DNA of 64,000 nt from Naegleria gruberi (GCA_000004985.1 GG738880.1), one strand, 5' to 3'. Counted from the stretch's first letter, positions 1-23,600 are shown. Notes: a model not told the origin generated them from the letters alone. A program made the numbers and translations.

Positions 1-549
1 GAATTTTTTTTGTGCTTTGTTTTTATTTCCACTGAAAACAGCATCACTATGCATTGAATGAGCAGGCAACAAACGTTTTGCGAACCAACCAACATTTTCG
101 CTTACTACTCCAATCTCAACGCATTTCGATAATGAGAGGATGATGAAGTTTACTTGGTGCATGGTTGATAATTCTTCAATTGCGTTGATGATGGCAATTG
201 ATAAAGTGCATCATTTTGGATAATTTACGTTTTAAAGCTCTACACGTTTTATTACAATTATTCAAGTGTGAGGGAGTTAATCATCCTCAATCAAATTGTT
301 ACGAATTAAATTACTAAAATTATTGGAATGTTGTTTATTTGCTTGACTTTGTCAGAAGAGTCTTTCACAGCATACAGGGCATGGTTTCTTCTTTAAGGAC
401 GTCCACAACACTTTTAACTAATGTTGTGCTGTAAAGTTGATGCAAAACTAAGATGAACATCAATAATGTTTCCACAAGAAGAATATTGCATTGAACCATT
501 CTATTATTAACTCATCGATTCCTATTACAATAAGGATAACTTGAAAAAA

Positions 550-1761
550 ATGTCAACAACAATCCAATCATCATATGATGATTCAAGGAGTAATAGCTCT
601 CCTTCCAGTAATATTGGACCGGAAGCAGTTTCAGATCAACAATTGAAGGAGGAAATTTTAAAACAAATTAAATTATTGGAGGAGGAACATCAAATTACCA
701 TTCTCCTTGTTACAGATGTCGGAAGTAGAGCCTACAATTGGGAAAATCCAACAAAGAGTGATTACGATTTAAATTTTATTTATACGAGACATTGGAAGTA
801 TTACATGACAATTCAAAATAAGCCACAAACATTAAAGAAGGAAACGTTCATAGATTTGGAGAGTGATTATCTCATTAAAAGAACAAAGAGTTCACACAAT
901 TTTTATCATGATTGCAAGGAAGGAGAATTAACAAATCAAAAACTTAGAGTAGAGTGCAATTTTGTAGGATTTGATATCAAGTATGCAGCAGATTTCTTTT
1001 TCAAATCGAATAGAGCTATTGTATTTCTCCTTATGTCCCCTTGCGTATATTACGTTCATCCAAAGGCTCATTCTTTATTTTTTGATAAGTGGATTCCAAT
1101 GTGCCACACTCACGTTCAAAGAAGACATCACTTGCAAGAAATGATTCACATTGCTAGATACAACATTAATAGATATATCCTAGGAAGAAGAACTGTCAGA
1201 GTGAAATCATATCTCTACATTTTACATCACTTGTTCTATGTTTTATATTTGTTCAAGAGAAAGGATGAAGATTCTTTCAAGAAGAGGCTTCCACCTTTGG
1301 AATTTAAGTATTTATTCGAGGATTTAAAGGGAGACTTTATTTCTCCAAAATTGGCTGGACTTGTTGAGTTTTTAATGAAATTGAAAGTGAGCGGAGATAA
1401 TTTTTGTAAAATAGTCATTCCACCAGAGGAAGTTAAACCTGTGGAGATTAAAGAAAGTAAACCAACAGACAACACAGAAAATTCTGAGGAGGTTCCTGCT
1501 AAAAAGAAATCAAAGAAACAAATCAAAAAGGAAATTAGAGCTCAAGCCGATGAAAACCTCAAAAGTTTGGAAGATGATGGTTCTAAGAATGATATTCACG
1601 TTGGGCACAGCTTGGAAATTGAATTATTTACCATTTATTGGTATCGTAAAATGAATTATTGGATTTATCACATGGAAAAGGATTACATGGACGGAAATGA
1701 TGTTGATAAATTATTATTGGAAGCAATTGATTTGTATGAAGGGCCAGAGTTTAGCATTTGA
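550..1761 (+). CDS. Nucleotidyltransferase-fold (Pol-beta superfamily) protein of uncertain family with a Lys-rich C-terminal tail; true start is the ATG at 550 (the ORF track starts at a TTG)
   Basis: Seen: an uninterrupted 404-codon ORF. After a predicted helix comes the motif VGSRAYNWENPTKSDYDLNFIY, which fits the NTase-fold signature h-G-S-x(9-13)-[DE]-h-[DE]-h found in MNT, OAS, cGAS and Pol-beta-type enzymes. A basic KKKSKKQIKKEIR tract follows later. The family assignment is inference. Confidence 0.5.
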   Translation: MSTTIQSSYDDSRSNSSPSSNIGPEAVSDQQLKEEILKQIKLLEEEHQITILLVTDVGSRAYNWENPTKSDYDLNFIYTRHWKYYMTIQNKPQTLKKETFIDLESDYLIKRTKSSHNFYHDCKEGELTNQKLRVECNFVGFDIKYAADFFFKSNRAIVFLLMSPCVYYVHPKAHSLFFDKWIPMCHTHVQRRHHLQEMIHIARYNINRYILGRRTVRVKSYLYILHHLFYVLYLFKRKDEDSFKKRLPPLEFKYLFEDLKGDFISPKLAGLVEFLMKLKVSGDNFCKIVIPPEEVKPVEIKESKPTDNTENSEEVPAKKKSKKQIKKEIRAQADENLKSLEDDGSKNDIHVGHSLEIELFTIYWYRKMNYWIYHMEKDYMDGNDVDKLLLEAIDLYEGPEFSI

Positions 1762-1763
1762 GA

Positions 1764-3152
1764 TTACATAAAAGCATTTTTGATCTTCTTTTTCTGCTCA
1801 TTGGCCATCTTTTTCTTCCTTTTCTCATTGAGTTTTTCCTCTAATTCTATTCTTCTTTGCTTTTCCTCTTCCGTTTCAACATATTCAGATCTTTGACTTG
1901 TTGTTGGAATAGAACTTGATAGTTCAACTACATTAGTTGGTTGATTATCACTCACATTAGGCATTTGGGATGAATTATTTTCCTCATTAACTTCTTCTGG
2001 AATGAGTCCAGCATCATCTCCACCTAAACGTGAATCATTTCCTTGAGAATTAATACCCCCTCCAAAGGAATGTTGTGATTGCTCTCGTGTATCTGCAATC
2101 TTTTGTTTCTTACTTGTTTTTGGTGGTGAGAAGAGATGATTCATATATTTGGTATATAATTGTTGGAGGAGAGGATTCTTATTAGATTCGGTAGAATCAG
2201 TCTTAGAATTTGTGAATGAAATATCACACATGCCTAGAGAATCACTGACGAGCAGGATCTTATCCAATTGATCCAAAATGTCAGAATTTTGAGTGGAATT
2301 ATTAGCTCCACTATACATTTGTCTGAAATTAATAAGTTCTTGCTCCTTTTTCAAAAGAAGGGATTTCATTTGATCAATTTGTTGATTTTGAGTTTGAACA
2401 ATTCCAAGTAGAGGTCTAATAACATGATTCAATATAAATAAATTTTCCTTATTGTAAAATCTAATATTATTCAATTCGCTCTTTTGACTATTTTCATCTT
2501 GGTCTTGTTTTCTCTTTTTTGGATTTTCTTCCTCATCCTGAATAAGAATATAGGAATGATCAATTTCCTCCTGATCCTCTCCTCCCTTAGAAATATTAGG
2601 ATCAATACTATCACAATGAATTTCCCAATAGAAAGGTAAACTTATTTGTACTTGTGTTGGTAAAAGAGCTCTGATAGTAACTACCAATTTGGTTCTCTTC
2701 TTTTTCAGAGTGCTTGCATGAACGCTCTGAATAGAATCCATCAACATGTCCATCGCTGTTTCCTCTTCACAATTTTTCTCACCTCTCACTTCAATCTTTG
2801 GTTGATTCTTCTCCTGTATCGAATCCAAATCATAATGAATTAAAAACTGTTCAATTTGTTGGACCAAAGATTCAGCAGACATATTCAACCCCTTACAATA
2901 CTTGTTACTATCACTTTCAATTTCTTCCTTTTCATATCGTTTCTTCCAAACACATTTCATATTGGAAATATAAAGTACAAATCCATTCGTGATGGTTTTA
3001 AATTTTACAAAGAATGATTCACCCAACGGATCGACCGACACTGGAAGACGAATCCAATTAATATTCATGATTAATTTTTCATCGGAATCTTGAATTATTT
3101 TTTCAAAAGATTCCGAAAATTTCAAAGAACTTCCCAAGCTTTGTGATGACAT
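1764..3152 (-). CDS. Hypothetical protein: globular N-terminal head followed by coiled coil, with a basic tail that may be an NLS
   Basis: Seen: a 462-aa ORF with an ATG start. It has two beta-rich modules (FFVKFKTITNGFVLYISNMKCVW and LVVTIRALLPTQVQISLPFYWEIH), heptad-rich helical segments and a C-terminal EKRKKKMANEQKKKIK. Any relation to XRCC4/SAS-6-type head plus coiled-coil proteins is speculative. Its 3' end lies 2 bp from the convergent upstream gene. Confidence 0.4.
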   Translation of the reverse strand: MSSQSLGSSLKFSESFEKIIQDSDEKLIMNINWIRLPVSVDPLGESFFVKFKTITNGFVLYISNMKCVWKKRYEKEEIESDSNKYCKGLNMSAESLVQQIEQFLIHYDLDSIQEKNQPKIEVRGEKNCEEETAMDMLMDSIQSVHASTLKKKRTKLVVTIRALLPTQVQISLPFYWEIHCDSIDPNISKGGEDQEEIDHSYILIQDEEENPKKRKQDQDENSQKSELNNIRFYNKENLFILNHVIRPLLGIVQTQNQQIDQMKSLLLKKEQELINFRQMYSGANNSTQNSDILDQLDKILLVSDSLGMCDISFTNSKTDSTESNKNPLLQQLYTKYMNHLFSPPKTSKKQKIADTREQSQHSFGGGINSQGNDSRLGGDDAGLIPEEVNEENNSSQMPNVSDNQPTNVVELSSSIPTTSQRSEYVETEEEKQRRIELEEKLNEKRKKKMANEQKKKIKNAFM

Positions 3153-3246: not shown

Positions 3247-3763
3247 TTATTTACTAGCCAAATCTTTCAGGGACATGAATTCCTTGAATTGATCATAGGT
3301 AATTCCACTATCTAAATCAATTCCGGCCTTTGAAAGTAAATTATTAATATTAATTTCGCTCATACTCTCATCACCCATCAATTTTAAAATCTTAATTTGA
3401 TAATTTACAATTTCCATTACAAAAAATTCAAAAACTTACTTCTTTCAATTCTTTCCTGTCAATTGTGCCACTTGAATCCTTGTCAAAAGTTTTGAAAAAT
3501 ACCTTTAATTCATCCTCACTTGATTGCTGACTCCAAACTTTGACAAATTCCTTAAAATCAATCTTTCCATCTTTGTTAGTATCAACCAAATTGAACATTT
3601 CTTCCAATTCTTCATTGGTTGGAGCACAACCATTCAATTGAAACATTACTTGAGAAAGTTCCTTCTTGCAAATACTTCCATTTCCATCAAGATCGAATAG
3701 ACAAAATGCTTCTTTCAATTCTGAGAGTTCATCCTTGGAGATTGTATCAGTTTCTGATGTCAT
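3247..3763 (-). CDS. Calmodulin-like four-EF-hand Ca2+-binding protein, two exons: join(3763..3440, 3390..3247)
   Basis: Seen: three EF-hand loops in exon 1 (DLDGNGSICKKEL, DTNKDGKIDFKEF, DKDSSGTIDRKEL). The ORF then runs straight into GTAAGT. Splicing out 49 nt to the AG at 3392/3391 continues in frame and gives a fourth EF-hand-like loop (DLDSGITYDQF) before a TAA stop. Spliced length is about 155 aa, close to calmodulin. Confidence 0.7.
3391..3439 (-). other. Intron, 49 nt, GTAAGT...AG, in the EF-hand gene
   Basis: The donor GTAAGT follows directly after the codon GAA. Removing the 49 nt up to the AG at 3392/3391 keeps the frame and completes a fourth EF-hand. Confidence 0.65.
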
Positions 3764-4044: not shown

Positions 4045-5535
4045 TTATTGTTTAGAATTGATGCTCTTCAAAACTGCCTTCTCATAATTCTTCAAGAAAT
4101 CTTTGAATTCATTTCTAAAATCTTTCAAAACCTTATTCTCAGCCATGGAGTTACCGCTCCTTGGGGAGTTTCTATTCGATTCTTTGGAAATGGTGAGTTG
4201 ATATCTTTCAAAGGCAGGTATTAAATTCTCGCTAACTTCCTTTTGGATTTCATCAAATAAAGTGAGAGGAACTACTTGAGCTTCATTCTGAGCTTGTTCT
4301 TTGATGAAATTTTCAACTTTCGCATAACCTTTAGTCTTGACATAATTAGGAGAACCTCTTGGATTCAGATACTTCTCATATAAATGAATCATTAAGGAAT
4401 CAATCTTCCTATTTGAAGCAATACTTGTTGTTGTATTGATTGAGTAGGCATCACTTGATTCAGAAACAGTATCTTGTTCAACGATGGACGAATCTTCTGA
4501 ATAATCTTTCAATTCTTCCAAGAAATTTCTCATCGTTTGAATTTCTTGCTTTTCAGGACTCTTGAAATCTTGAATGTCTTCCAACAGGAAAATACGATTC
4601 AAATCATTACTCGAATCTCCATAATTTTGTAAACTAATCCACTGTTTCAACAAGGATCTCTGTACAACCGAACTCATCACATTTTGCAACTGTAACCTTT
4701 TTGCCTTCATGAGTTTCTTCCTTGAAACTCTTTCCATTCTCAAAACACTGACAAAAATTGCAACACCAATTGGCAATGAAATTACCAAACAAATTAAAAC
4801 TACAATTAAATAAGTAGTTGAATTGGATGCAATCAATTCATGTTGAGTATTACTGATATTTCTAATCTGTTCAACAAATAAAAAGTAATCATTTAGGAAG
4901 GAGGATTGACCAGAAAAATGTTCAGGTTTCATAAATAATTTGACACCTTCAGAATAATTACCTGCCAAGGTTTGTTTTAGAATGGCATCTTGAAGTGGGA
5001 ATAAATAGAGAGTACTTGCATCCTTACTTGAGTTTGGGAAAACTTTCTCAGCACTTTCAGGTAATAATTTAAAGAGCTCATTAAACGAATCAATCATTTC
5101 ATTTCTTGATCGATTGAACAATGAATATTTTGACAGATCTTTGGAGAGAACCACCAAATTCACTGCACTACTCATCTTGTTATACTGGAAAGCACTATCA
5201 CCAAATATTTTCAAAGTTCTAAATACGGGAAAACTTGTTTTGGCAAAAGTATAAATTGTAATAATTGCAATAATTACAACGCCAATGATTGCTGTGCTTA
5301 TTCCCAACAGTGAAACCAATCTCATGAAGTTTAATTCAACAATCTTTTGAAAACATGGTAATTTAAAACGAGCAGTGTTTGATTTGGCAGTTTCACTCTT
5401 CTTTGAGCTTTTAACTTTGGAACTTGAGGTAATTGACTTGATGGATTTCTTTGGAGAATTAATACAAGTCGAAATTGGTGGATTAATTCTTTCAGAGGAT
5501 GCATTGATAACTTGTACTTGGTTACCAGCAACCAT
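4045..5535 (-). CDS. Two-pass membrane protein with a glycosylated ectodomain and a C-terminal RGS-like domain
   Basis: Seen: ATG start and a hydrophobic helix LVSLLGISTAIIGVVIIAIITIY. The region that follows carries several N-x-S/T sequons. A second helix is TYLIVVLICLVISLPIGVAIFVSVL. The tail (FLEELKDYSED ... IHLYEKYLNPRGSPNYVKTKGYAKVENF ... LFDEIQKEVSENLIPAFERYQ) lines up with the helix 4-9 signatures of RGS domains (FL.sEfSeEN ... A..IY..fI ... FdeaQ..If.lMe.dsy.RF). This is a divergent match, so the RGS call is inference. Confidence 0.5.
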   Translation of the reverse strand: MVAGNQVQVINASSERINPPISTCINSPKKSIKSITSSSKVKSSKKSETAKSNTARFKLPCFQKIVELNFMRLVSLLGISTAIIGVVIIAIITIYTFAKTSFPVFRTLKIFGDSAFQYNKMSSAVNLVVLSKDLSKYSLFNRSRNEMIDSFNELFKLLPESAEKVFPNSSKDASTLYLFPLQDAILKQTLAGNYSEGVKLFMKPEHFSGQSSFLNDYFLFVEQIRNISNTQHELIASNSTTYLIVVLICLVISLPIGVAIFVSVLRMERVSRKKLMKAKRLQLQNVMSSVVQRSLLKQWISLQNYGDSSNDLNRIFLLEDIQDFKSPEKQEIQTMRNFLEELKDYSEDSSIVEQDTVSESSDAYSINTTTSIASNRKIDSLMIHLYEKYLNPRGSPNYVKTKGYAKVENFIKEQAQNEAQVVPLTLFDEIQKEVSENLIPAFERYQLTISKESNRNSPRSGNSMAENKVLKDFRNEFKDFLKNYEKAVLKSINSKQ

Positions 5536-5956
5536 TGTTTCACTTTTTTTTATTCTTTGAAAGTTAATTGAAAGTAAACAAAACCATCAAGTCCAAAAAC
5601 ACCCACCATCAAACATCAATGATACTTGTTGACATTGGATTCTTTTTTGGTCAATTATTCCATTAATAAAGATATCTTTATCGAGATAACATTTTCAAAC
5701 TCAAACTCATCGTTAGTCAATGTAGTTTATTTACATGTTGTCTAATAAAGTCCTCTGTCTTTTAATGTTAGTTTCCTTCTCTTTGAAATATTGGCTAAAT
5801 TATGTTATGGGCACTACGTTTACGTTTTTCTTGATGGAATGAACTAAATTGGTTGCTTATAATTGGGTGTTTGTTTTTCGAACTTGCGTATGAAGCGATT
5901 TAAGTCTCTTTTTATTCGAAATGGGTAAATTGTTTAGTCAATTACAACAATAAAAA

Positions 5957-7545
5957 ATGCAAGCAACATCTCCCACATCACCAAACACCACAACAGAGGA
6001 AGATTTTGAAGATAATGACAGTATTGTTGCTGAGGATGAAGAGAATGATAAGCAGATGAGAAATGTGGTATCGTATGGAGTGGGAGAAACTCAAGTTTCG
6101 TTTACTCAAAATCCACTTTCAGATACCTTTTCGTATTATGAGCCAGGAGAACACGCCAATACGAAACAAGGGAGTGAAAATGTGTGTCGTGGTGCTGTCA
6201 TTCGTTCATGGTTTCAGAAATTAAGAGAAAAGGATCTCATCATTCCATCCATGACTACCATTACACTTTTACTAATTATGGCATGTTTGATTGTAATAGT
6301 GGTTGCAGTTACAGCTCCATTCAAGGACATTACTACAGTGAACGTGGTTGATATTATGAGCTATCGTTCATCATTGTTGGCTGCTCATGTATCCATGAAA
6401 GGTTTTACTATCCAGTTTATTCCTATTTCCTCTACTATTTCATGAGATCATTTATGGAAGGGAGTTTACAAAATATGACGACGTTGCTGCCTCCAGAGTT
6501 TAAGCATGAATACTTGTATTATACGAATAATTATACGAATGCTTTCAAACAACCAACTGTTAAAGTGTGGGATAATGTGCTTATTGGTCCTACAATGTAT
6601 CCGTTCCCATTCACTATTGGAAATGAAACTGTAACATATTACTTGGTAGACAATCAAAAAATGGGACAAGCTCAACAAGTTTATTCTAGTGCAAACTATT
6701 CCACAATGCTATCTTCCTATGAGACATCGTTCTTCAATTATGTTGGAAATATCACAAGTTATTGTGAGAACATTTCAATCTCTACCAAAAACTATTACAT
6801 TGTAACAATATCAATGGTGGCATTCTGTTTGTTCATTGTCATCCCAACCATGATGTTAACTTTATTCTTTATTCTGAAGAAGGATAGAAAGAATGCAATT
6901 CAATTGAATCAAACAAGTGAAAATCTATTGAAAGAAACCATGTCTGATATGGCAACTCGACAGGCTTTCAAAATATTTTGTAACGAGAGAGGTTTTGGTG
7001 CTCACATCAATGCCATTGAGAAGATTATGTCATTTAAGGAACATTGTGAACAATCTCAGGAAATGCAAACGAAATTGATTGAAATTACTTCAGATTATGT
7101 CAATAAGGTTAATGCCATGCATGATCAAAACCATTTCAATCACAAAGGAGACAAAGTTAACTTTAAGATTGATGATAAAAAGACAAGAGCTATTTTCAAT
7201 ATTTCATGTGAAGCCGAAAAGAAAATCAAACATAAGGAATACATGAAATCGAGTTTAATTTTTGACATTTTGGAAGAAACTCAAGATGTAGCTAGCTCCA
7301 AAGTAACAAGTGAATTATTCTATGCCTATGATTGTTACAACAATAGAGAGAAAATGTTTCAAGATATTGACATTCTTCCCTCAATGATTATGGACAAACT
7401 GGAACATGAACTAAGTGATGCACTCATCAATACCCATTTAGATTTCAAGGCATCACTCAAAAACAATACCATGCTTTCAAATTCTGAACCACATCACACA
7501 GAAATCGATAGAGAAGAATTTGAGTTGGAGCTAGTCAATGTCTAA
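5957..7545 (+). CDS. Two-pass membrane protein with an N-glycosylated ectodomain and a C-terminal RGS-like domain; probably two exons, join(5957..6401, 6461..7545)
   Basis: Seen: the ORF track gives two abutting ORFs (5957-6445 and 6442-7545) in different frames. A 59-nt intron, GTTTTAC...GGAAG, reconnects them in frame (..HVSMK|GSLQNMTT..); the donor is weak. First TM helix: ITLLLIMACLIVIVVAVTAPF. The ectodomain is rich in NxT/S sequons. Second TM helix: IVTISMVAFCLFIVIPTMMLTLFFIL. The tail, ATRQAFKIFCNERGFGAHINAIEKIMSFKE ... KVNFKIDDKKTRAIFN ... LIFDILEETQD ... SELFYAYDCY, is RGS-like. A single-base frameshift in the assembly cannot be excluded as an alternative to the intron. Confidence 0.5.
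6402..6460 (+). other. Candidate 59-nt intron joining the 5957 and 6442 ORFs
   Basis: Phase-consistent GT...AG; the length is congruent to 2 mod 3, which the frame change between the two ORFs requires. The donor GTTTTA is non-optimal. Confidence 0.35.
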
Positions 7546-7629
7546 GCAAGCTGTTACCTGCGCGGACAATTTAATTAAGGGACAGTATAATTTGTAATCA
7601 AAAGGAATTGAGGAACTGTGACACTGTAT

Positions 7630-7637
7630 AAAAATCC
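7630..7637 (+). promoter_or_regulatory. TATA-like element (TATAAAAA) about 20 nt upstream of the first ATG of the 7657 gene
   Basis: Seen in the sequence. Position and orientation are appropriate for a core promoter. Functional status unknown. Confidence 0.25.
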
Positions 7638-7656
7638 TTATTTCAACAAATTGCGC

Positions 7657-9594
7657 ATGATTTTTCAAAAACACAAAAAAATGATTTCAAGCAATAACTC
7701 AATGTATTCAGAGCCTCAAAGGATGGCGATTGAATCACCTAATAAATTGTCGATCAAGATACAAGACGATGGATGTGGGATTGTATTCTTTTCAAAGGAG
7801 AAAGATGATCGGGTTGAGGTAAAGTTTCATAGAACTATTAGGCTTCCCGAAGATGATAAGAGCTATCCACTTCCCTCATCGATGGGATTATTTGCCATTG
7901 AGAAGGTTGATGATTATTTAGAGACGGTTCCTGAGGATTTCAAAAAGCATGGAGGTGTTTTTATATGTATACAACAGAGAGAGGCATTGAGAATGGAATT
8001 TGTCAATACAAATATTCATTTCCCTCATGCTTTGAAGATTGCTTCGGGAAAGATCAATGTATTGAGTGGAGAGGAATGGGATGAAAGGATTATAGAACGC
8101 CCAGTTCAAGATTATATTGTTTCACCAATGCAGAAGAGATTGGATGGAATTAATTGTGGTGGATTCAGAAAAGTGAAACAATTTGTGGCCATGCCTTTAG
8201 GAAAGGGTTACACTCTTGAAGGGCAATTAAGTACGAATGAAGAGGAATCAATTGGAGGTATCCAGATTATCTGTTTCAACTCTGACAGTAAGAAACGAGA
8301 GGAAAAGTTTGGACAAATTATTCCAACAAAACCAACCACTCCCAAAAAACCAATTCCAACAAATAAGGTGGTTCCACCAACTTCATCTGTTTCCAAACAA
8401 CCTCCAATGGTTAAAAGTTTGTCTGTAAAACAAAAGAAATCAACACAACCCACACCAAGTCCGAGATCTACTGGTCCATATTTATCGTCACCTTCTTCTC
8501 AAAGAAGATCAGCGTCTTCCAATGAGAAGAGTGGACCAGAAGAGATGGGAATTGCTCCTGGTGGCTCAATGAAACAGACCCTAGTAGCAGATCCATATAC
8601 TCCTCAATTCTGGGATGAACAAAGTAAAGCAAGAATCTTTGTTCATTTGGTGAATACAAAGATGTATACTCAAATCACTGGTAAGAGACCAACTGTTTCA
8701 CCAATAAGCAAGGAGACATACTTAAAACTCAATTATCCATGGTATGAACATTATGTTGAAGAGTCTGGGACCATTCCATCAAGTGAAATATTATCAGATA
8801 TCAATACAGTTAAAGAGACTGATGTCTCTCTATATGGAAAATCAAAAGACTCAACCACCTCAATAACTGTTGGAAAAATCATCAAGAAGACCACTTCAAT
8901 AGAAAAGGCTGATTTTATTCCTCCACCATTGCAAACAAAATCACATGCGTTTCGTGATATTTTGCCAAGAGAAATAGTGTTTCACATTGCTACCTTCCTG
9001 ACAGTTCCTCCTCTTAATAGATTGGCTAGATGTGACAGATATTTACTCGATTTGTTCTTTAATTTAACAGTTCCAAAAGTGTACTTAATTCAAAAAAGAA
9101 AACAAGAATTCAAGCAACAAGGGATTGAGACTGCAATAGTGTCGATGAAGGATATCTTTAAGGAAGATGAAGACTCACTTGTGCAAAAACTTGTCTGGAA
9201 ACCAATGGTATTATTCTACTTCCCAAGCTATCAAGAATCGTTAAATATCAAAAACTGGATGCATGTATTGAGGAGAAGAGTAACACATCTCATGAAAAAG
9301 TGCCCAACAGCTCTCCCTCTCACCAAACAAATGTCAACAGATGCATTCAAAGTTGATATGCCAACAAAGGATAGGAGGTTCATTGAGAATTGTGAGTGGG
9401 AGTATGAATGCCCTCTCAAGACAACTGACCTTAAAGAGGCTAGTACAGGTGTAAGGTATTGTCATGTTTGTAAAGAGAAGGTCTATGAAGTATTCACCAA
9501 AGAGGACTTTAAATCTCACATCTCACAAGATCACTGTGTCATGGTTACAACAGCTCCACAAAGACGAATCATGGGAAAAATAAGAATACAATAA
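7657..9594 (+). CDS. F-box-like protein with a Pro/Ser-rich linker and a C-terminal Cys/His-rich element; first ATG is at 7657 (the track starts at a GTG)
   Basis: Seen: a TATAAAAA element at 7630-7637, just upstream. An F-box-like motif is present: FRDILPREIVFHIATFLTVPPLNRLARCDRYLLDLF. A PTKPTTPKKPIPTNKVVPPTSS low-complexity tract follows. Near the C-terminus, CEWEYECPL...YCHVCKEKVYEVF...HISQDH could be a zinc-binding module. Function is inferred. Confidence 0.45.
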   Translation: MIFQKHKKMISSNNSMYSEPQRMAIESPNKLSIKIQDDGCGIVFFSKEKDDRVEVKFHRTIRLPEDDKSYPLPSSMGLFAIEKVDDYLETVPEDFKKHGGVFICIQQREALRMEFVNTNIHFPHALKIASGKINVLSGEEWDERIIERPVQDYIVSPMQKRLDGINCGGFRKVKQFVAMPLGKGYTLEGQLSTNEEESIGGIQIICFNSDSKKREEKFGQIIPTKPTTPKKPIPTNKVVPPTSSVSKQPPMVKSLSVKQKKSTQPTPSPRSTGPYLSSPSSQRRSASSNEKSGPEEMGIAPGGSMKQTLVADPYTPQFWDEQSKARIFVHLVNTKMYTQITGKRPTVSPISKETYLKLNYPWYEHYVEESGTIPSSEILSDINTVKETDVSLYGKSKDSTTSITVGKIIKKTTSIEKADFIPPPLQTKSHAFRDILPREIVFHIATFLTVPPLNRLARCDRYLLDLFFNLTVPKVYLIQKRKQEFKQQGIETAIVSMKDIFKEDEDSLVQKLVWKPMVLFYFPSYQESLNIKNWMHVLRRRVTHLMKKCPTALPLTKQMSTDAFKVDMPTKDRRFIENCEWEYECPLKTTDLKEASTGVRYCHVCKEKVYEVFTKEDFKSHISQDHCVMVTTAPQRRIMGKIRIQ

Positions 9595-9829
9595 TACTCG
9601 AAGTTCCCTCTTTCAGTCTTTAAAACACCAAGATCTGTTCTCCAATATTTATTGATAAAAATCGCTGCTTAGTAAACATTGATTCATGTGGAATACTTGA
9701 TCGATTCCTCATTCCTTTGTTGAGTGTGTTCAATGATGGAACACCACAATTCATTGATCTTGTCTAAATGGTTCTTTTTCTGGTTAAAACGGTATGTAAA
9801 GTTTGTCTGTTTATTAAGTAATTGCCATC

Positions 9830-12800
9830 CTAAACAATATATGCATCATCTTGCCAGGCCATTATATTTGTTTGTTTGGCCATTGACGTGAACATTTCCT
9901 TATTTTTTCTATAATTCTTAAAAGAACTAGTGGAAATGAATCGATAGAAAGTATCATTCATGTTAATCATGATTTGTTGAGAGAGCGAATCAAAACAAGT
10001 GATGATTCTTGCTTTGAGGATTCGTTCTTCCTCTTCATTTAGACCATCCAATTGTTTGTGAAGCTCGTTTCCAAATAGAAGTGCATTGAATTGATTTTCT
10101 GGCGAGGTTGGCTCGTTGACTGGTGAAAATAATGCTTGATTACACGAAAGTAAGGCACTTCTTTTGGAGGATACATAAAAATGTAATTCTGTAAATAGAT
10201 TTTTGGTAAGGGATGGGACATTCACCTCATAGATCGATCCAGAGCATATAAAGTTCTCATTTATCCTGTCCATAAACATTGGAAGCAAAGATAAATTATC
10301 ACCCATGACAATTGACTTGTTTTGGATTAATTCCAAAAACAAGTAAAGATTTTCCAATGAAAATTCCTTCTTTGAATATTCTTCAAACAACTCAAATCCT
10401 GATTGATCTTGCAGAGTTTCAATTAATTCAGTTTGTTCAAATAATTCATCACTTGTTGCAATTGACCTCTTTTTGGTTTTAAATCTGAGCAATATTACCA
10501 AAGCAAATCCACCGAATATAAACACATAAATTGCAGAGTAGATAGTTTCGAAAATACACTGCAAAACTAGAAAATATTGAGCAGTGTCATCCTGTGAATC
10601 TTTGAATTCATGGCTCAGAATTCCACTCATCATTTGAATAAGGCAAGCTAAAAAGCAAACTAAAAAGAGAATCATTTCCATTCTGAAATATAGAGGATTA
10701 TCCAGTTGAAGTATTCTAAATAGAACATTCTTTCTTTCGAATGATAAAGATGGTCTATCAGTATTCATTTCGTCTTGTTTCCTTTCACTCAATTGAACTA
10801 CTCGAGAACTGTTTCTAATATTTGATTTTTCCTTCCTTCTTATAGAAGAAATAATATCAATCAAGATGGTGATGGAAATTGTGATAGAGCAGATGATTAT
10901 AATACCAGCATAGGTCATTGAAGTTATTCGAATGTAATCTTCAGGTAAAATCAAGTCTAATCGAACAAGTATTACCAATAACGACCAAATAATTACATTC
11001 ACCAACAGGCAAACTACAACTAGAAAGTTAAATAGAATTGGTGATGTAATTAATTTCAACATTCTAATGATATTTCTATTCGAATCATTCGTTTTTAGTT
11101 TCAATTCTTCATACAGAGCTTTCATAAATTGAAATCTAATAACCTGAATTAGATATGCAAATATTGCAGTGATATTCAAAGAATTCACAATAACCATGCA
11201 TACATTTCCAATAATATTCACACCCATCAAACTATTCGAAGGATCACTAATTTCATACACAAACAATCCCTCTTGTAAAATGGAAAGTACACTTTCGAAT
11301 AAAATAGCAATCATTCCCACAAATGGTGTAATCATTCTACTCTGCACTGGTTGCTGTTTTCTAAATATTCCTAGAAGAAACAACAATATAATTGAAACTA
11401 AACTGAAAATTACGTTAATTCCCATCTGAACATATTGAACTGACAAGACGAATGTTTGATCTATTGGAGCTTTAAACTTCATATTTGGTTTCGGTGGGTT
11501 TCCCTCGGAATATTCTGTAGAGGTCAAGTTTCTTCTTTCGTATTGGAGAAAAGTTGAGAATTTTGTTGTGTGTGAACATGAACATTGAGCTATTCCAGTA
11601 ATGTTATCGTAATAATCGAGGGAGCAGCCGTGTCCAGACCATTTCATTGAAATTTCGTCCCAGAATAGGCATGAGATGGCAAATTGTTCAACTATGGTCG
11701 TTGTCGTGTTAACAATAGTTTCGGTTTCATTATTGGAAACTGTTTCATTAATTTGAGATTCGGATAAAACTACTCGAGGATCTAATGTTAAATTTCCTCT
11801 GGAAACATCGTTAATAACAAACTGTAGAGTTATTGGATTCATTAAATCAACTTTACAACTTCAGCATTTTGAAAATATTTCAATTCTTGAATGAAAGATG
11901 ACATTTGATTTTGCATTGAAAAATTATCATTTCTGATGTTTCTTTCATATGTTATTAGTGATAGTCCAAGATTAGTTCCAAATCCACCATATTTTCCAGC
12001 AATTTCTCTCAAATCCAATTGAATGTTTCCTCCATTAGTTTCTAATAGAAATTTAGTAGAGTTTTGAGCTAAATTTTGCAAGCTTCTTGCGCCCCTAGTT
12101 AACACAAAGGAAGAAAAGGTAGTATTCAGTCCAGAGGTTGAAAATTTAGTATAGGGAAGATTAGTGACATCACTGTCAGTGCTCAAAACTTTAGGAATTT
12201 CTGATTTCAACATTAATTTCGTAAATGACAAGATTAAATTTTCAGTTTTCCGCATTTCATCATCAACTAACATCATTCCTTTTTGAGAAATAGTTATTGA
12301 GCTAGAAGATGAACCAAAAATATTTGCCAACAAACTACTTGCTGTCAATTTCGCATCTTGTGTCAAACTAGATTTCACATATCCGTACGAATCTATTTCT
12401 TTCTGATATAAATCCAAAGTATTATACAAAAAACTATTCACACTATTCGAAAGCTGATTCAAAACCTTCTTATCCTTCATTATTGAAGATTCGGATGAAA
12501 TTGAATTCAAAACTTTCAATGAAGAATCAGCATTTGTAATATCAATATTGAGATTATTAATTAAATTCAATATTAGATTGGTGTTATTCGTATTCGATAG
12601 AGCTGACTGATCAAAAAGAAGGACGTGTTTCGAATAATCGCTTAGGTATTCCAATTCTTTTGAAAGAGGATTGACCTGAGCTGTGGCCACTCTCAAGGAT
12701 TGTTCGAATCCTTCTGAATCTTTTACAAAGATTACAATATCAATGGGTGAGGTTGACCATGAATTTCTAGAAAGTGATTTGAATAGATAGGGAAGAGGAA

Positions 12801-15759
12801 GCTTTGAAACTGGTTCTGTTGAATATTCTGTTACTCTAATTAAGGAAGATGTTGATGGAATGCCATTGGTGGACTTGTCTTGATATTTGTTGTAAAATCC
12901 GAAAGCATACGAAAGTGGTCGAAGGTTTAAATTATTCACAATCCATTCAGGTGAAGAAACAAAGAATGAATCCACCACAGCCATTCCCTCTTTTGGACTC
13001 AATTCAATTCTATTAAAATAATCTTCTGGATAAATTGCAGGTTTTGTAATGATAATTGAAATTCTCGATTTTTCAAAGGATTGAAATGAATATCTTATTG
13101 AGAGAATTGTAACACTAATTTGAAATACAAACTCTGATCCGTCATCAAATGCATCCAAATTCATATTTGGGAATGGATTTGAAATATTCATTTGTAATAT
13201 TGGGTTGAGTTGAATAGTGGAATCGTCTCTATATCTCTGAGCTAGTATTGGTCCACTATTTTCAAGTATTCGAATTGGGGTTTTGAAATCTGATGAATTG
13301 AATACAGTTATAGTTGATTGGTAGTTCAATTGACAAGTAGTGTTATCTAATGAGAATCCAACACAATCGTTCAATAGAAAGTCAACTCCTTCAGGATAAT
13401 TAAACGAAACTCTGTTAATTAGAATGGAAATATCTAAATTCTTGGTAAATGCCATAGTGGAAGACAACTTGTAAGTTTGCACATTTGTAATTAGCACATC
13501 TTGAGGCTGAATTAGTTTCTTTGGTATGAACAATACAGTAGAAAGAGTATTCAAAAGAATATCTTGTGAATATCTCTCACTAAGCACTCCCCGAATCAAA
13601 AATTCATAATAATATTCTCTTTTTAGAGAAGAAACATCCAAACTAAACTCTTGACTCTCCACAATCCATGCATTTTCATAAGAATTGTACATGTAATCGG
13701 TACAATTAGAACACCAAACTCTATACGAAACTAAACCTGATTGAATACTGCTCCCAATCTTGAATGAAATCAACCCTTCACTCCCATTGACATTCGATCC
13801 ATTCAATGCTATTTCTAAATTAGCTGCAACTCTTGAACTATCAACATATGAATCACATAAACTTCCATAAAAGGTTCCATTCTCAGTCTTTTTACATTCA
13901 CAAGTATCGATATTGGAACAAACTCCATTTCCTGAACAAGCATTCGAATCTGTATTTGCAATTCCCCAACAAGAATATAATTCACAACTGTCTCCGTAAT
14001 ATCCATCCTGACAGGAACATTTCAATTCTTTGGTGCAGGTTCCTCTCTTCATACATTGAGGAATGATAGAGTTGGGTTGGCATTTGTAAGAGTTACACTG
14101 CTCTCCTGAATATCCAGTGAGGCATTCACAATGATCTGGACCTGTGCATTGTCCGAAACCAGAACAAACTAAACTATCGTTTGAGAATTTTCCATAACAT
14201 TGAAAGAGATCACATTGAGTCCCAACTCTTCCACTCTCTTCAGCACATAGACAATTGTTAGGCGCTACACAAGATCCAAATCCTGAACAAACTTTTTCAT
14301 TATTGTAAGGAATTTCATAACAATCAAAATTTTCACAAGTCGTTCCATAATAGCCCAATTGACAAGAACAATTTCCAGGTGAAATGCAACTTCCCCTTCC
14401 TGAGCATATGAGAGATTTACCTGTATCCAACAACAATACAGAAACTCCTCCACATTCATAATCATTACAAGTCACTCCAGAGAAACCCTCAAAACAAGAG
14501 CAGTTTCCTCCAACTTGACAATCTCCATTTCCAGAGCAAACTATTAGTGAGCTTGCCTTAATTCCATAACATTGACTTTCGTATTGACAGGCATCTCCAT
14601 AGAAACCATTTTTACATGAGCATTGATTCAGTCCAGTACATTTTCCATTCCCATAACAAACATTTGAATCATTACTCGGCACCCCATAACAATTCATAAA
14701 ACCACTGATGGTCATTAGATAACCATATGGTATGGTGGAACTGAGTGTTGGTCCACCACCAGCAAACAATAAGGAATTTCCCATATTAAGCACTGATATT
14801 CCATACGCAGAGTAAGGTGAGTTGAATGAAGTAACATTCTCCCAAATTGACATGTTATTAAGGTTAGCTCTAAGCATACTCCTTCCTAAAGATCCAGAAA
14901 AGATGTAGGCATAATTCGCAGAAATGAAAGAAGCACTTCCAAAAACTGAATTGGGTAGTGAAATGGGTGAAAGTTTCCAAACAGAATTTGATGATGCATT
15001 ACTTGTCGTGAGAGAATCCAATTGATCAAATGAAGTGTAATAGATTGTCTTGTAATAGTTTAGTAAATCACTTCCTCCTCCAACAATGTAAATCATTCTT
15101 CCTACGCTAAAGACACTAGCTGCAAATATGGCATTTGGAAATGTCCCAACTCTTTGCCAAATTGTTGGGGAGCTCAAGTTGGCCATATACACAGCTTTAG
15201 AATATTCTGAATTGAATGAACCTCCTATTAGAAAGAGGTTCTTCTCTGTTCTAAAGAAAACTGGCATTGTGCAAGAATAGGGAAGCTCCTCATCCAATAC
15301 TGAAAACGACTGCAAATCAGACAGTTTTGCTCGCATTATCTTTGATGTTCCACCTCCAAATATATAAGCATAATCAATTCCATTCAAGTTCAAAACTTGA
15401 AATGCATAGCCATAGGCCTTTTGAGGTAACTTTCCAATCACTGAGAATGGCCCCACAGTGTCAAGCGTAATTTGGGAGTAATTTGAATAACCTCCATTGA
15501 TCAGCTGGCTTGTAATTTTGCTCGAAATTGAAACGTTTGATGATTGAATATTGTCAAGAGGATTGTTTCCATCAAAACCTCCGAATGAATAAAGTTTCAT
15601 TGAGGATGAATCGAAGAAGAGAGTCGAATAGGAACCAGAAGCTTGGGGAAATACATTGAGTTGTGGGGAGAGGGTGAAGGGTTCTTCCTCGATTCCCATT
15701 AAAAAATTGTTGGATAGCTGAATGAGAGTTATAAAGATGAAGAGAAATAATCGAAGCAT
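9830..15759 (-). CDS. Giant adhesion-GPCR-like receptor: signal peptide, Kelch/galactose-oxidase-type beta-propeller, tandem EGF-like repeats, GAIN-like region with GPS motif, 7TM, C-terminal RGS domain. Proposed model join(15759..11860, 11821..9830)
   Basis: Seen: the upstream ORF (11842-15759) opens with a signal peptide, MLRLFLFIFITLIQLSNNF. Kelch-type blades follow (FGGFDGNNP, YIFGGG, LFLIGGSF, IYIVGGGSD, YIFSGSLG, LLFAGGGP). Then come about nine Cys-rich EGF repeats (CYGNGKCTGLNQCSCKNGFYGDACQ ...) and roughly 650 aa of mixed alpha/beta sequence. Its TAA stop overlaps the ATG of the next ORF (TAATG). The downstream ORF (9830-11842) begins with a GPS-type motif, CLFWDEISMKWSGHGCSLDYYDNITGIAQCSCSHTTKFSTF (consensus C..W......W...GC............C.C.HLT.F). 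It continues with 7 hydrophobic helices and a clear RGS domain (FEEYSKKEFSLENLYLFLE ... MINMNDTFYRFISTSSF). A GPS motif has to be preceded by a GAIN domain, which can only come from the upstream ORF. A 38-nt GT...AG intron (11859..11822) joins the two in frame (..KYFQNAE|FVINDVSRG..). The join is inferred. Confidence 0.55.
11822..11859 (-). other. Candidate 38-nt intron (GTTGTA...CTACAG) fusing the two halves of the adhesion-GPCR gene
   Basis: In-frame, phase 0 on both sides. The length is within the 38-80 nt range of the confirmed introns in this window. An alternative is a 1-nt assembly frameshift near 11845-11865. Confidence 0.4.
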
Positions 15760-20632: not shown

Positions 20633-23600
20633 ATGTCATCACAAGAGTTGTTGGAGATTGACAATCATAGTACGGAACATTCAAATGTTAACACTTCCAT
20701 CACTTCTCATCATCACGAATATCTTCACTATGGAGATTTCATTTCACTCTTCACTGAATCGAGTGGTGGAAGTATTGGATTTCTCAGTGTGGATGGAATT
20801 AATATTAATTGTAATAATATTCAAGGGTTTGTTTCTCTTTCAAAACTTAATAATTTTAATAATTTAATTAAATTGATAATCAATACATTAATCATTGGTT
20901 GCCAACATTAACGTTATTTAAACAAAATTAAAAAATGTTCGGAAAACAATTATTGGATCGCGATTGATATCTTATGTTTATTAATAATAATAATTGAATG
21001 ATGAATTGATAATGATAATAGGAATGTAAAACAAATTCGTTGTGGTCTTTCAGAGGCTGTGTCCTTGACTGGACATGAATCAAATCAACAACAAGCCTCT
21101 CACAATCAACAACAAACAACTACTTCCGACTCAAAGACAAAGCAAATTCCTCCCACCTATATGATCTCTAACTTTCAACAATGTGTTTTTCAAGTTTGTT
21201 ATCCGAAGAGTTATTCTGCCTTGAAAAAGTACAAACAACATTTGGATGAATTGGAAATCAAGGCTAGTGGTAATAGTGCAAAGAAGAGTCAAGACAATTC
21301 TGACAATGATTCGAAGAAGGTTATTCATCATGAGAGCAATGAAGTTGCTCAATTAAAGGAACGAATGGAACGTGAGATTCAACAAAATGAATTGGAAGCT
21401 CTGAGAAATTATGGAAAACCTGTTACATATGGCTCATCAATTCAATTACTTCATGTACAAACTCAAAGCTTTTTGACTGTTGCGAGAGAGTCTGCAGAAA
21501 TGCAGAAGGATTGTCTCAGATTATCATTGGATGATGTTGGATCGAAGTATTCACATTTTTCTCTACTTCCATATTTCAATTATCGTAGAGATGGAGAAAT
21601 TGTGAAACTTTCTGACAAGATTAGAATTTGGAATAGAAAATCTGCACAATATGTACAATTTTCATACTATAGATATAGTAATGCTGTAGAATCAGGCTTG
21701 AAGAATGCTCAAAGTATTGGTTCAAACGTTAATGAGATGGATAAATCATCTTACACACAATTAGCTAAAGAAGCTGTAAAGAATAATGCCAACCTTAAAA
21801 AATTCACATACGACAATAGAAGAGAAGTTAACATGTCAGCATCGAGTGCATTCTCACATTGGAATTTGAGAGTATTTTCACCTTGTAAAGATTCCCCTAC
21901 AGAAAGTAACAAATTCCTCAAAGCAGGTGATATAATAAGAATTTATCACAAAGAATTTGATGGTTTTTTAACTGTCAATGAAAAGACTGGAAGAGTCAAG
22001 CTGAAAAAGTCATTTATCAATCCTCTTATTGGAAGCTCAGCAAATGGAGAGGCATCTTTTTCAAATTCAGGTTTAAGTTCAATGAAGGGATCAGGTATGA
22101 AGTCATTCTCATCCAAATCAAGTCTGGTCTCTGGTCAATACTCTAGTTCGTTCAATCTGGCAGATTCCTTCTCATTGAGCAGTAAGAGTAGCCTGTCACT
22201 GGTTGACTCTTCTGAGAATACTCTTTCTGGTGTTATACAGGATGACTTTGATGTAACTTGTCATACATTGTGGCAAGTAGAAATGTTGGACTCAACCAAA
22301 GGAGGAGAGTTGAGGAAGAATTTCGTTTATAGGTTGAGACATGTCAGTACAGGAAACTATCTCATAGCAAGAATGGCCACTGATGATGAAGAGAAAAAAG
22401 AAAGAGATGCAGAAGATGCTGAAATTTCTGAATTCTCTCACAGTTCTTTCTACATTTCATCTGAATCAAGCTCTAGTTCTATTCAATTGCATAATACAAC
22501 AAGCCCACTTTCTAAAACACCAATCAAAACCAAGAAGGAGAATAATCTTAGCTTGTTCGTAGAACCACAAGATAATTGTACAAACCCTCTCAATATGTTG
22601 TTTAACTTGCAAGATTCCATGCTTTCTACAGATCACTCTGAGTTTTTCTTGAATGGGCAATTCAGACTCAGACATTATCTAACTAATACTTGGTTGCATT
22701 CAGTTAATTCGCAGAAAGCTTTTTCTAAATCATCTGAAAGAGCCTCTCTCAAATCTCATTACTCACCAGTATGTACCACTCAAGGCATGAGAGAGGAGGA
22801 TGTATTGACTTGTGTGTTGGTTTCCAGACCAGAAAGTGAAGACTTGTTCACAGTGCAAAGTTACATCCCAATTCTCAAATACTTTACTCAAAAACTTAAT
22901 GATGGATCTGTAAATAGGAGTGACATCAAGTTGTACATTGACGTAATTTCTAGTTGTATAAGATTTTGTACTAGCAGTTCTGAAATGGATCCCCTCCTGA
23001 GAAGTGGTATTCCAATCAAAAAAAACCAAAAATTAATGAGAGAAAAGGGTGTCATTACTATTGTTATGGATATTTTGATGGCACTTATTTCTAAGAATTA
23101 TGTAAAATTGGAAGAGTTATCAACAATTCAAGAAAGGAGTGACAAGATTGACTTTTTTGATGTAATTCAGTATTCATACAGATTCATTAGACAAGTTGTA
23201 CTTACAAACGAATCAAATGGTTTATTTATGGCACAGTACATTAACTTTATTCAGACCAACATTGAACATAGTATTAGTGCATCTGAGGCTCTTTTGCAAA
23301 TTTTATCCAACAATTTTTCCTTGTTGAATAAGATTACAGAGGACCAAATTGACTTTTTCATCAAATTATTATTCACAAACCCTACTAGTTCTAGTTCATT
23401 GAAGCAACATACAGAAAGATATGGAGGTTCTCTTAAGAAAGCTGTCTACTTATCCTTCTTGACCAGTCTAATCATATGTGAAGGAAAAACTGTCGTGAAA
23501 AACCAAAAGTATATTAGTAACCTGCTCTTCTCAACATTCAAGGAGCAAATGTTGAAGGTATTTGTAATACCAAGAATTAGAAAATCAGATGATAAGGTGA

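Follow-up and report, generated by a model that had tools for sequence, protein, structure and literature searches.

A 64,000-nucleotide (nt) stretch of Naegleria gruberi DNA (GCA_000004985.1 GG738880.1), here called the window, encodes two adjacent membrane proteins, A and B, each with two transmembrane (TM) segments (2TM) and a C-terminal tail homologous to the RGS domain. The interpretation that we favor on balance is that the two genes are a copy of a paired 2TM module with degenerate RGS-homology domains, recurrent in Naegleria and its close relatives, whose two products act together. A and B are members of a large 2TM-RGS family in which roughly every second protein keeps all Gα-contact residues; within it, the A-like and B-like proteins would form two diverged subfamilies that have lost these residues, lie as neighbors on opposite strands, and have undergone duplication together. 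Membrane-anchored RGS proteins, 7TM-RGS proteins, and some annotated N. gruberi 2TM members are known already; the new element is the paired A-like/B-like module without the residues required of a GTPase-activating protein (GAP). In the searchable literature, we found no account of the degenerate A-like/B-like subfamilies or of their conserved pairing, with one relevant paper falling outside that coverage.

A preliminary description of the window proposed that A, B, and a third gene, C, pair TM segments with a cytoplasmic C-terminal RGS-fold domain. This is borne out for all three, by hydropathy and a family profile for A and B and by Pfam for C. The description was largely correct, yet what it describes are ordinary members of a known expansion.

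Genes A and B

Gene A is a single open reading frame (ORF) of 496 amino acids (aa), at positions 4045 to 5535 of the window on the minus strand; all coordinates refer to the whole window, whose GC content is about 33% throughout. In the protein collection, its product exactly matches N. gruberi XP_002675121.1/NAEGRDRAFT_69761, named "predicted protein". Its orthologs are P0002 of N. fowleri, which carries the UniRef name "RGS domain-containing protein", and P0006 of N. lovaniensis, and the ORF is intact in all three species. Gene B lies head to head with gene A, the start codons being 421 bp apart, and consists of two plus-strand ORFs in different frames, 5957 to 6445 and 6442 to 7545. These two ORFs are one gene, because the alignment with N. 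fowleri P0009 (FDP41_010371; 34% identity, E 1e-97) spans both of them, including the first TM segment. The main features, with family HMM denoting the hidden Markov model described in the next section, are as follows.

4048 to 5535, minus strand: gene A, a 2TM protein of the A-like subfamily (single ORF; exact protein match)
5242 to 5328, minus strand: TM1 of gene A, aa 70 to 98 (hydropathy scan)
4816 to 5241, minus strand: predicted extracellular loop of gene A, aa 99 to 240, with 5 N-x-S/T sequons (hydropathy; sequon count)
4741 to 4815, minus strand: TM2 of gene A, aa 241 to 265, followed by 8 K/R within 15 aa (hydropathy scan)
4186 to 4734, minus strand: cytoplasmic degenerate RGS-homology domain of gene A, aa 268 to 450, with an insert between α3 and α4 (family HMM; hhalign)
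5536 to 5956, between the genes: A-B intergenic region, 421 bp, presumed to be a shared promoter (ORF coordinates)
5957 to 7542, plus strand: gene B, a 2TM protein of the B-like subfamily, 529 aa once the frame is repaired (P0009 alignment; scored frame-repair models)
6239 to 6322, plus strand: TM1 of gene B, aa 95 to 122, in the first frame (hydropathy; aligned with TM1 of P0009)
6403 to 6406, plus strand: T4 run of gene B, where the frame slips by one base (1-nt insertion model against P0009)
6793 to 6876, plus strand: TM2 of gene B, aa ~275 to 302 of the repaired protein (hydropathy scan)
6877 to 7467, plus strand: cytoplasmic degenerate RGS-homology domain of gene B (family HMM; hhalign)

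Hydropathy gives two TM segments in each protein, separated by loops of ~140 to 160 aa with 5 (A) and 6 (B) sequons, in agreement with the earlier picture of divergent 2TM proteins with sequon-rich ectodomains. The stretch that follows TM2 is strongly basic in both. The two TM segments, the sequon-rich loop, and this basic stretch point to an N-in/C-in topology with a cytoplasmic tail, as the preliminary description had it; taken together with the RGS homology of the tails, this prediction is close to certain. The extracellular loops are probably N-glycosylated.

The ectodomain of the family to which A and B belong is ~150 aa long, with a mean of 0.57 Cys and ~3.8 sequons, and shows a loose consensus, ...RGD...Y...lP...Gn...A..lL.S..Y.... 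It matches no Pfam family, and a search of the loop profile against PDB found nothing significant; a faint TPR-like resemblance in that search (E 0.6) was rejected. On the cytoplasmic side, just before TM1, the family consensus contains a Cys-rich juxtamembrane motif (...TCCG..EL...), at which A has PCF and B has VCRG. This motif may be a palmitoylation site.

RGS homology of the A and B tails

The relationship of the two tails to RGS domains becomes visible through an intermediate family. A profile built from A, P0002, and B was searched against 1.84 billion representative sequences and retrieved 74 proteins at E ≤ 1e-3, 52 of them at E ≤ 1e-10. Nearly all are 400 to 600 aa long, colinear over profile positions 6 to 407, and composed of two TM segments, a ~150-aa loop (mean of 3.8 sequons), and a ~200-aa tail. 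The species represented among the named members are N. gruberi, N. fowleri, N. lovaniensis, and Willaertia magna. Scanned singly, 43 of 72 relatives match the RGS family of Pfam (PF00615; best E 7.8e-12), which is the only Pfam family to recur among them.

A C-terminal family HMM was then built from the post-TM2 regions of 63 members, with A, B, and their orthologs left out, and run against the 124 ORFs of the window. Three scores result: 125.5 bits (E 1.5e-38) for B, 57.3 bits (E 1e-17) for A, and 34.7 bits (E 8.6e-11) for the RGS domain of gene C; none of the other ORFs obtains a score. In hhalign comparisons, the family profile aligns with A at 97.3%, with B at 99.6%, and with mammalian RGS4/2/16/GAIP at 89.7% (E 1.9e-6), with a long α3-α4 insert. 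Having been shown through the intermediate family profile, the RGS homology of the tails is secure, and we regard it, jointly with the 2TM topology, as nearly certain.

Direct comparisons of the A and B tails with RGS fail. The PF00615 assignment expected of all three C termini is obtained at 25.0 bits for gene C and fails for A and B, which reach RGS only via the family profile. Queried against PDB sequences with phmmer, the two tails gave no match, hhalign of alignments of 1 to 3 sequences of these tails against RGS was nonsignificant (E 0.017 to 0.49), and the full-length family profile, whose global alignment is too ragged, found only a low-complexity poly-Ser match in PDB. Structure prediction gives moderate additional backing for gene B only; the model of gene A is uninformative (predicted local distance difference test score [pLDDT], 40.8). 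Pfam-based RGS censuses accordingly miss A and B.

Loss of the Gα-contact residues

Six residues of RGS4, namely, Ser85, Glu87, Asn88, Asn128, Asp163, and Arg167, contact the Gα switch regions, as established by the RGS4-Giα1 structure and by mutagenesis. The corresponding columns of the family were mapped with an RGS4 sequence checked against PDB entries 1agr and 1ezt. The distribution of the N88, N128, D163, and R167 equivalents is bimodal: all four are kept in 34 of the 67 representatives, with the signature S-E-N ... N ... D ... R, and none or one is kept in 30. A and B belong to the latter group. At Ser85/Glu87/Asn88, Asn128, Asp163, and Arg167, gene A has D/N/R, a gap, P, and R, so that one of the four residues is kept; gene B has F/A/H, a gap, N, and D, and none is kept. 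The whole α4-α5 loop segment that bears Asn128 is missing from gene B. The residues at the N88/N128/D163/R167 positions are R/gap/P/M in the N. fowleri ortholog of A, R/gap/P/H in that of N. lovaniensis, and T/S/L/N in the N. fowleri ortholog of B, and all A and B orthologs keep none of the four.

The core RGS positions are conserved, with Leu at W92, Tyr/Phe-Lys at Y98-K99, Phe-Asp at F149-D150, and Phe at F168. With the contact residues lost and the core positions kept, the tails of A and B are degenerate RGS-homology domains. The Asn and Asp residues for which the preliminary description suggested looking are thus found in gene C (SLEN, EVN, and DTFYRF) and are missing from A (R/gap/P at N88/N128/D163) and B (H/gap/N). 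These substitutions make it rather probable that canonical GAP function has been lost in both proteins.

The opposite view, that A and B are functional membrane-tethered GAPs with ligand-sensing ectodomains, i.e., 2TM analogs of AtRGS1 and of the N. fowleri 7TM-RGS proteins, draws on real precedents. Of the 28 7TM-RGS proteins encoded by N. fowleri, some have GPS, EGF, or lectin ectodomains, and the RGS domains of this family have been demonstrated to act as GAPs for N. fowleri Gα (Bosch, Jeck and Siderovski 2022, PMC9283941). In addition, half of the homologous family keeps all canonical contacts, the topology places the RGS domain in the cytoplasm, and A retains the Arg167 equivalent together with the FD...Q core of helix α6. 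Against this, no protein among A, B, and their orthologs in three species retains the Asn88, Asn128, or Asp163 equivalent, each being substituted or missing; this is a stable, subfamily-wide loss rather than a single substitution, and B has no loop segment to bear Asn128 at all. We therefore consider active GAPs unlikely here. The ligand-regulated GAP activity toward Gα that had been proposed for all three genes is plausible for C, where the contacts are kept, and doubtful for A and B.

Conserved pairing of A-like and B-like genes

A and B share 23% identity over 170 colinear residues (BLASTP, 31.6 bits). Their Smith-Waterman score of 105 exceeds that of every one of 2,000 shuffles (46 ± 7.8) in which ectodomain, TM helix, and tail were shuffled separately, and the two are therefore paralogs, diverged and with little identity, as previously suggested. 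Beyond its orthologs, the nearest relatives of A are P0007/P0078 (N. gruberi NAEGRDRAFT_58095), followed by P0012, P0010, P0011, and P0013; those of B are P0008, P0009, P0020, P0015, P0053, and P0032. A and B are thus not reciprocal best hits, each having closer paralogs elsewhere. A recent tandem duplication was considered as their origin and rejected, these paralogs being much closer. BLAST comparisons with seed sequences and a neighbor-joining (NJ) tree of 174 columns separate the A-like, B-like, and canonical clades, with a few other degenerate lineages outside them.

A-like and B-like genes are adjacent at seven loci, four of them seen in DNA and three inferred from the order of accessions.

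This window, A/B: divergent, 421 bp apart (ORF coordinates)
N. fowleri L001, A ortholog at 10001 to 11983 (plus strand) and B ortholog at 12277 to 14529 (minus strand): convergent (P0009 confirmed to be encoded there)
N. lovaniensis L004, arrangement and flanking genes as in N. fowleri, B over at least 3 frames: convergent (DNA)
Environmental contig L002, P0053 (B-like, minus strand) and P0019 (A-like, plus strand): divergent (DNA)
N. gruberi D2VFX8 (A-like)/D2VFX9 (B-like): presumably opposite strands (consecutive UniProt accessions)
N. gruberi D2VFZ0 (B-like)/D2VFZ1 (A-like): presumably opposite strands (consecutive UniProt accessions)
N. gruberi D2VY70 (A-like)/D2VY71 (B-like): presumably opposite strands (consecutive UniProt accessions)

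GenBank numbering fits the adjacency of the first two accession-based pairs: the offsets of 3 and 7 intervening genes add up to the 10 UniProt accessions between them, which is what opposite-strand adjacency predicts. No family neighbor is present at three control loci that carry canonical or other family members (L003, L005, and L006). A metagenome scan for further A-like/B-like pairs yielded no confirmed relative.

The A-like and B-like subtrees of the NJ tree are congruent across the pairs. For the seven pairs, the two distance matrices are correlated with a Mantel r of 0.94 (1 of 5,040 permutations); when each orthogroup contributes a single pair, r is 0.82 (1 of 120 permutations, the smallest possible value). 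The recurrent adjacency and the congruent trees argue that the pair has been duplicated and inherited as a unit, so that A and B are very probably one copy of a co-duplicated A-like/B-like pair.

The surroundings of the pair are not conserved. In N. fowleri and N. lovaniensis, it is flanked by genes for TruB, Methyltransf_16, NMD3, and TsaD; the N. gruberi neighbors are entirely different. The differences in neighbors and orientation indicate that the pair has been rearranged or relocated between N. gruberi and the other two species. A shared bidirectional promoter of about 420 bp had been suggested for A and B; the spacing of 421 bp agrees with it, but its conservation does not hold, since the pair is convergent in N. 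fowleri and N. lovaniensis.

The frame slip in gene B

The preliminary description placed gene B at 5957 to 7545. The location stands, but the frame is interrupted by a 1-nt slip at positions 6403 to 6406. Homology to P0009 and to the environmental relative P0008 shows that the first frame is coding through ...HVSMKGF, ending at 6406, and that the second is coding from YYPVYSYF, starting at 6406. A GT-AG intron would have no room here, because both frames are coding up to base 6406. The possible intron models were enumerated and rejected, the best of them scoring 820 against P0009, compared with 863 for a 1-nt insertion in the T4 run. Judged from these models, the frame slips by a single base, owing either to a mistake in the assembly or to a real lesion. 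Because of it, the public N. gruberi model (P0003, 356 aa) is truncated to the last 356 codons of gene B, without the N terminus and TM1.

Three origins of the slip are conceivable: faulty assembly, a lesion specific to this strain, or an early stage of pseudogene formation. The N. lovaniensis ortholog (L004, 10223 to 12064, minus strand) lies in at least 3 overlapping frames, and its annotation is split into products of 288 aa and 170 aa; this split reflects introns, frameshifts, or decay. Together, the two cases hint that B-type genes are fragile or poorly assembled.

These observations, along with the lost contact residues, are what one would expect if both genes, or in this strain gene B at the least, were decaying, nonfunctional relics of the RGS expansion under relaxed selection. 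The N. gruberi repertoire of 229 Pfam-detectable RGS proteins, whose TM-plus-RGS architectures have been surveyed (de Mendoza et al. 2014, PMC3971589), leaves room for dead copies. Nevertheless, A is intact in three species, and B is intact both in N. fowleri, as an uninterrupted ORF of 750 aa, and in an environmental relative (50% identity). Apart from the single slip, which in a homopolymer could be an assembly error, gene B runs for ~1.6 kb without a stop and can be aligned with its ortholog over the full length. Both subfamilies have outlasted several pair duplications with congruent trees, and the core hydrophobic RGS positions are conserved in them. Decay is thus a quite improbable explanation of the pair.

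Possible function of the A/B pair

The main argument for a joint function is the duplication and inheritance of the pair as a unit. An A-like and a B-like protein would then work together, most plausibly in a heteromeric 2TM receptor-like complex, which we put forward as a tentative proposal. The contact-keeping members of the 2TM-RGS family are presumably membrane-tethered receptor-GAPs, like the 7TM-RGS proteins. The RGS-homology (RH) domains of A and B would instead serve in binding or scaffolding, as do those of Axin, the GRKs, and SNX13/14/25.

Naegleria controls its self-activating Gα mainly through membrane-bound RGS proteins, a repertoire shared by the pathogenic N. fowleri. If the proposal is correct, part of the N. 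gruberi RGS expansion (229 genes) would not be GAPs and would form a separate, probably heteromeric, receptor-like module. A bolder version, which we rate as rather unlikely, makes A and B an obligate heteromeric four-helix TM receptor, in which the GAP-dead RGS domains bind activated Gα or another partner without switching it off. Such a receptor would be an anchored effector, a scaffold, or an anti-GAP opposing the canonical 2TM-RGS and 7TM-RGS receptor-GAPs, and it would add an unrecognized branch to G-protein signaling in a system where Gα subunits self-activate. GAP (BODIPY-GTP hydrolysis) and surface plasmon resonance assays have been set up for N. fowleri RGS domains (PMC9283941).

Comparison with known systems places the pair as follows. 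With the 7TM-RGS receptor-GAPs (AtRGS1 and the N. fowleri family), A and B share a membrane location, a cytoplasmic C-terminal RGS domain, and a presumed sensing extracellular part, but they have two TM segments, a single loop of ~150 aa as the ectodomain, and an RGS domain without the switch contacts. The Naegleria proteins annotated as "RGS and transmembrane domain-containing protein" (e.g., XP_002673536.1) belong to the same family as A and B by full-length profile, topology, and domain order. The canonical 2TM-RGS proteins among them keep the S/E/N88, N128, D163, and R167 equivalents, are detected by Pfam, and are single genes in the loci examined, whereas A and B are degenerate and come in heterotypic pairs. 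Unlike the non-GAP RH proteins (Axin, GRK2, SNX13/14/25, and D-AKAP2), A and B have no PX, PXA, kinase, or DIX domain; their order is TM1-ectodomain-TM2-RH, and they are confined to Naegleria, Willaertia, and related environmental sequences. The likeness in function is a presumed one. Head-to-head receptor gene pairs that encode heteromeric complexes, such as the NLR pairs of plants (RRS1/RPS4), likewise consist of diverged paralogs on opposite strands, which are passed on and duplicated together; the families concerned are not related, and the likeness is an analogy of genome organization.

Several points weigh against a paired module without GAP activity. Neither A nor B matches PF00615, either as whole proteins at E ≤ 1 or as C-terminal pieces at E ≤ 10; the best related direct score is 16.3 bits, compared with the cutoff of 23.9, for a C-terminal fragment of the N. 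fowleri A ortholog (profile positions 44 to 110). The structure model of gene B is of moderate quality (pLDDT, 58), and its Foldseek comparison with PDB gives no match at E ≤ 0.001. The evidence for the loss of GAP activity consists of residue substitutions, and some active RGS proteins (GAIP/RGS19) accept Ser in place of Asn128, so that some activity may remain. For three of the seven pairs, adjacency is taken from accession numbering rather than coordinates, the NJ tree carries no bootstrap support, and the orientation of the pair varies, being divergent in N. gruberi and the environmental contig and convergent in N. fowleri and N. lovaniensis. The case for a heteromer is made by adjacency and co-phylogeny. 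Finally, given the slip in gene B and the spread of its N. lovaniensis ortholog over at least 3 frames, some copies may be decaying.

Gene C and other genes of the window

The third RGS gene lies downstream of gene B on the minus strand and is represented by two abutting ORFs.

9833 to 11842, minus strand: 3' ORF of gene C, with GPS (11549 to 11671), seven TM segments (~10487 to 11440), and a canonical C-terminal RGS domain (9911 to 10429) (Pfam; hydropathy; hhalign)
11845 to 15759, minus strand: 5' ORF of gene C, which borders directly on the 3' ORF and contains Kelch repeats as well as about six EGF repeats (Pfam; junction sequence)

The 3' ORF (9830 to 11842, 670 aa) was described earlier as a 7TM-RGS receptor, and this agrees with its Pfam matches to GPS (25.5 bits) and RGS (25.0 bits; cutoff, 23.9) and with its seven hydrophobic segments. 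The GPS motif, CSCSHTTKFSTF, lies ~40 aa ahead of TM1. Neither 7tm_2 nor any other 7TM family of Pfam is matched at E ≤ 1, and the 7TM part thus cannot be placed in the adhesion class. Aligned together with two orthologs by hhalign, gene C matches RGS4/2/16/GAIP at 94.5% (E 8e-8), and its SLEN, EVN, and DTFYRF motifs fall on the Gα-contact positions of RGS4. Its GPS motif, EGF repeats, seven TM segments, and canonical RGS domain make gene C a typical representative of the 7TM-RGS receptors, here of the GPS-7TM-RGS receptor family already known from Naegleria, and it is probably a real GAP. No N. gruberi protein was retrieved when homologs of the 670-aa ORF were sought, so that gene C seems to be absent from the public protein set of this species.

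At the junction of the two ORFs (11820 to 11860), the TAA of the Kelch/EGF ORF overlaps the ATG of the GPS-7TM-RGS ORF (...GTTGATTTAATGAATCC...), with a frame discontinuity at 11842. From the sequence around it, a 35-nt intron (GTAAAG...CTACAG) and an indel are equally possible.

A, B, and C all fall within ~12 kb, and one family HMM recognizes the tail of each, which invites the idea of a single co-regulated or co-selected cluster, as the preliminary description had it. Only the A/B pair is syntenic, though. No relative of gene C or of the other window neighbors was found by tblastn within ±10 kb of the N. fowleri pair, and a family HMM scan found no further family or RGS gene within ±8 kb of the N. 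lovaniensis pair. Moreover, gene C is a member of the 7TM family without a close relationship to A or B, and an unrelated 658-aa ORF separates it from B. With at least 229 RGS genes in a genome that we take to be ~41 Mb, an RGS gene is expected within ~10 kb by chance in ~5% of cases. A three-gene functional cluster is therefore very improbable, and the proximity of gene C is likely coincidental. The notion that the A and B C termini are generic helical bundles unrelated to RGS is effectively refuted by the strong transitive profile evidence and by the HMM that was built without A and B and, among the ORFs of the window, detects only these two and the bona fide RGS domain of gene C.

The 658-aa ORF between B and C (7618 to 9594, plus strand) has a Pro/Ser/Thr-rich middle part and a Cys- and His-containing C terminus; it matches no Pfam family, the best candidate being a zinc finger at E 0.08. 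On the other side of gene A are genes for an RlaP-type nucleotidyltransferase (541 to 1761, plus strand), an XLF/XRCC4-like end-joining factor (1764 to 3152, minus strand), and a calmodulin-like protein with three EF-hands (3428 to 3763, minus strand). The largest ORF of the window encodes 2,747 aa (21059 to 29302, plus strand). In N. lovaniensis, a canonical 2TM-RGS gene is adjoined by a 1,242-aa gene (L006, 13755 to 17624, minus strand) with Pfam matches to OrfB_IS605 and a Cas12f-like TNB domain, i.e., a TnpB/Fanzor-like nuclease.

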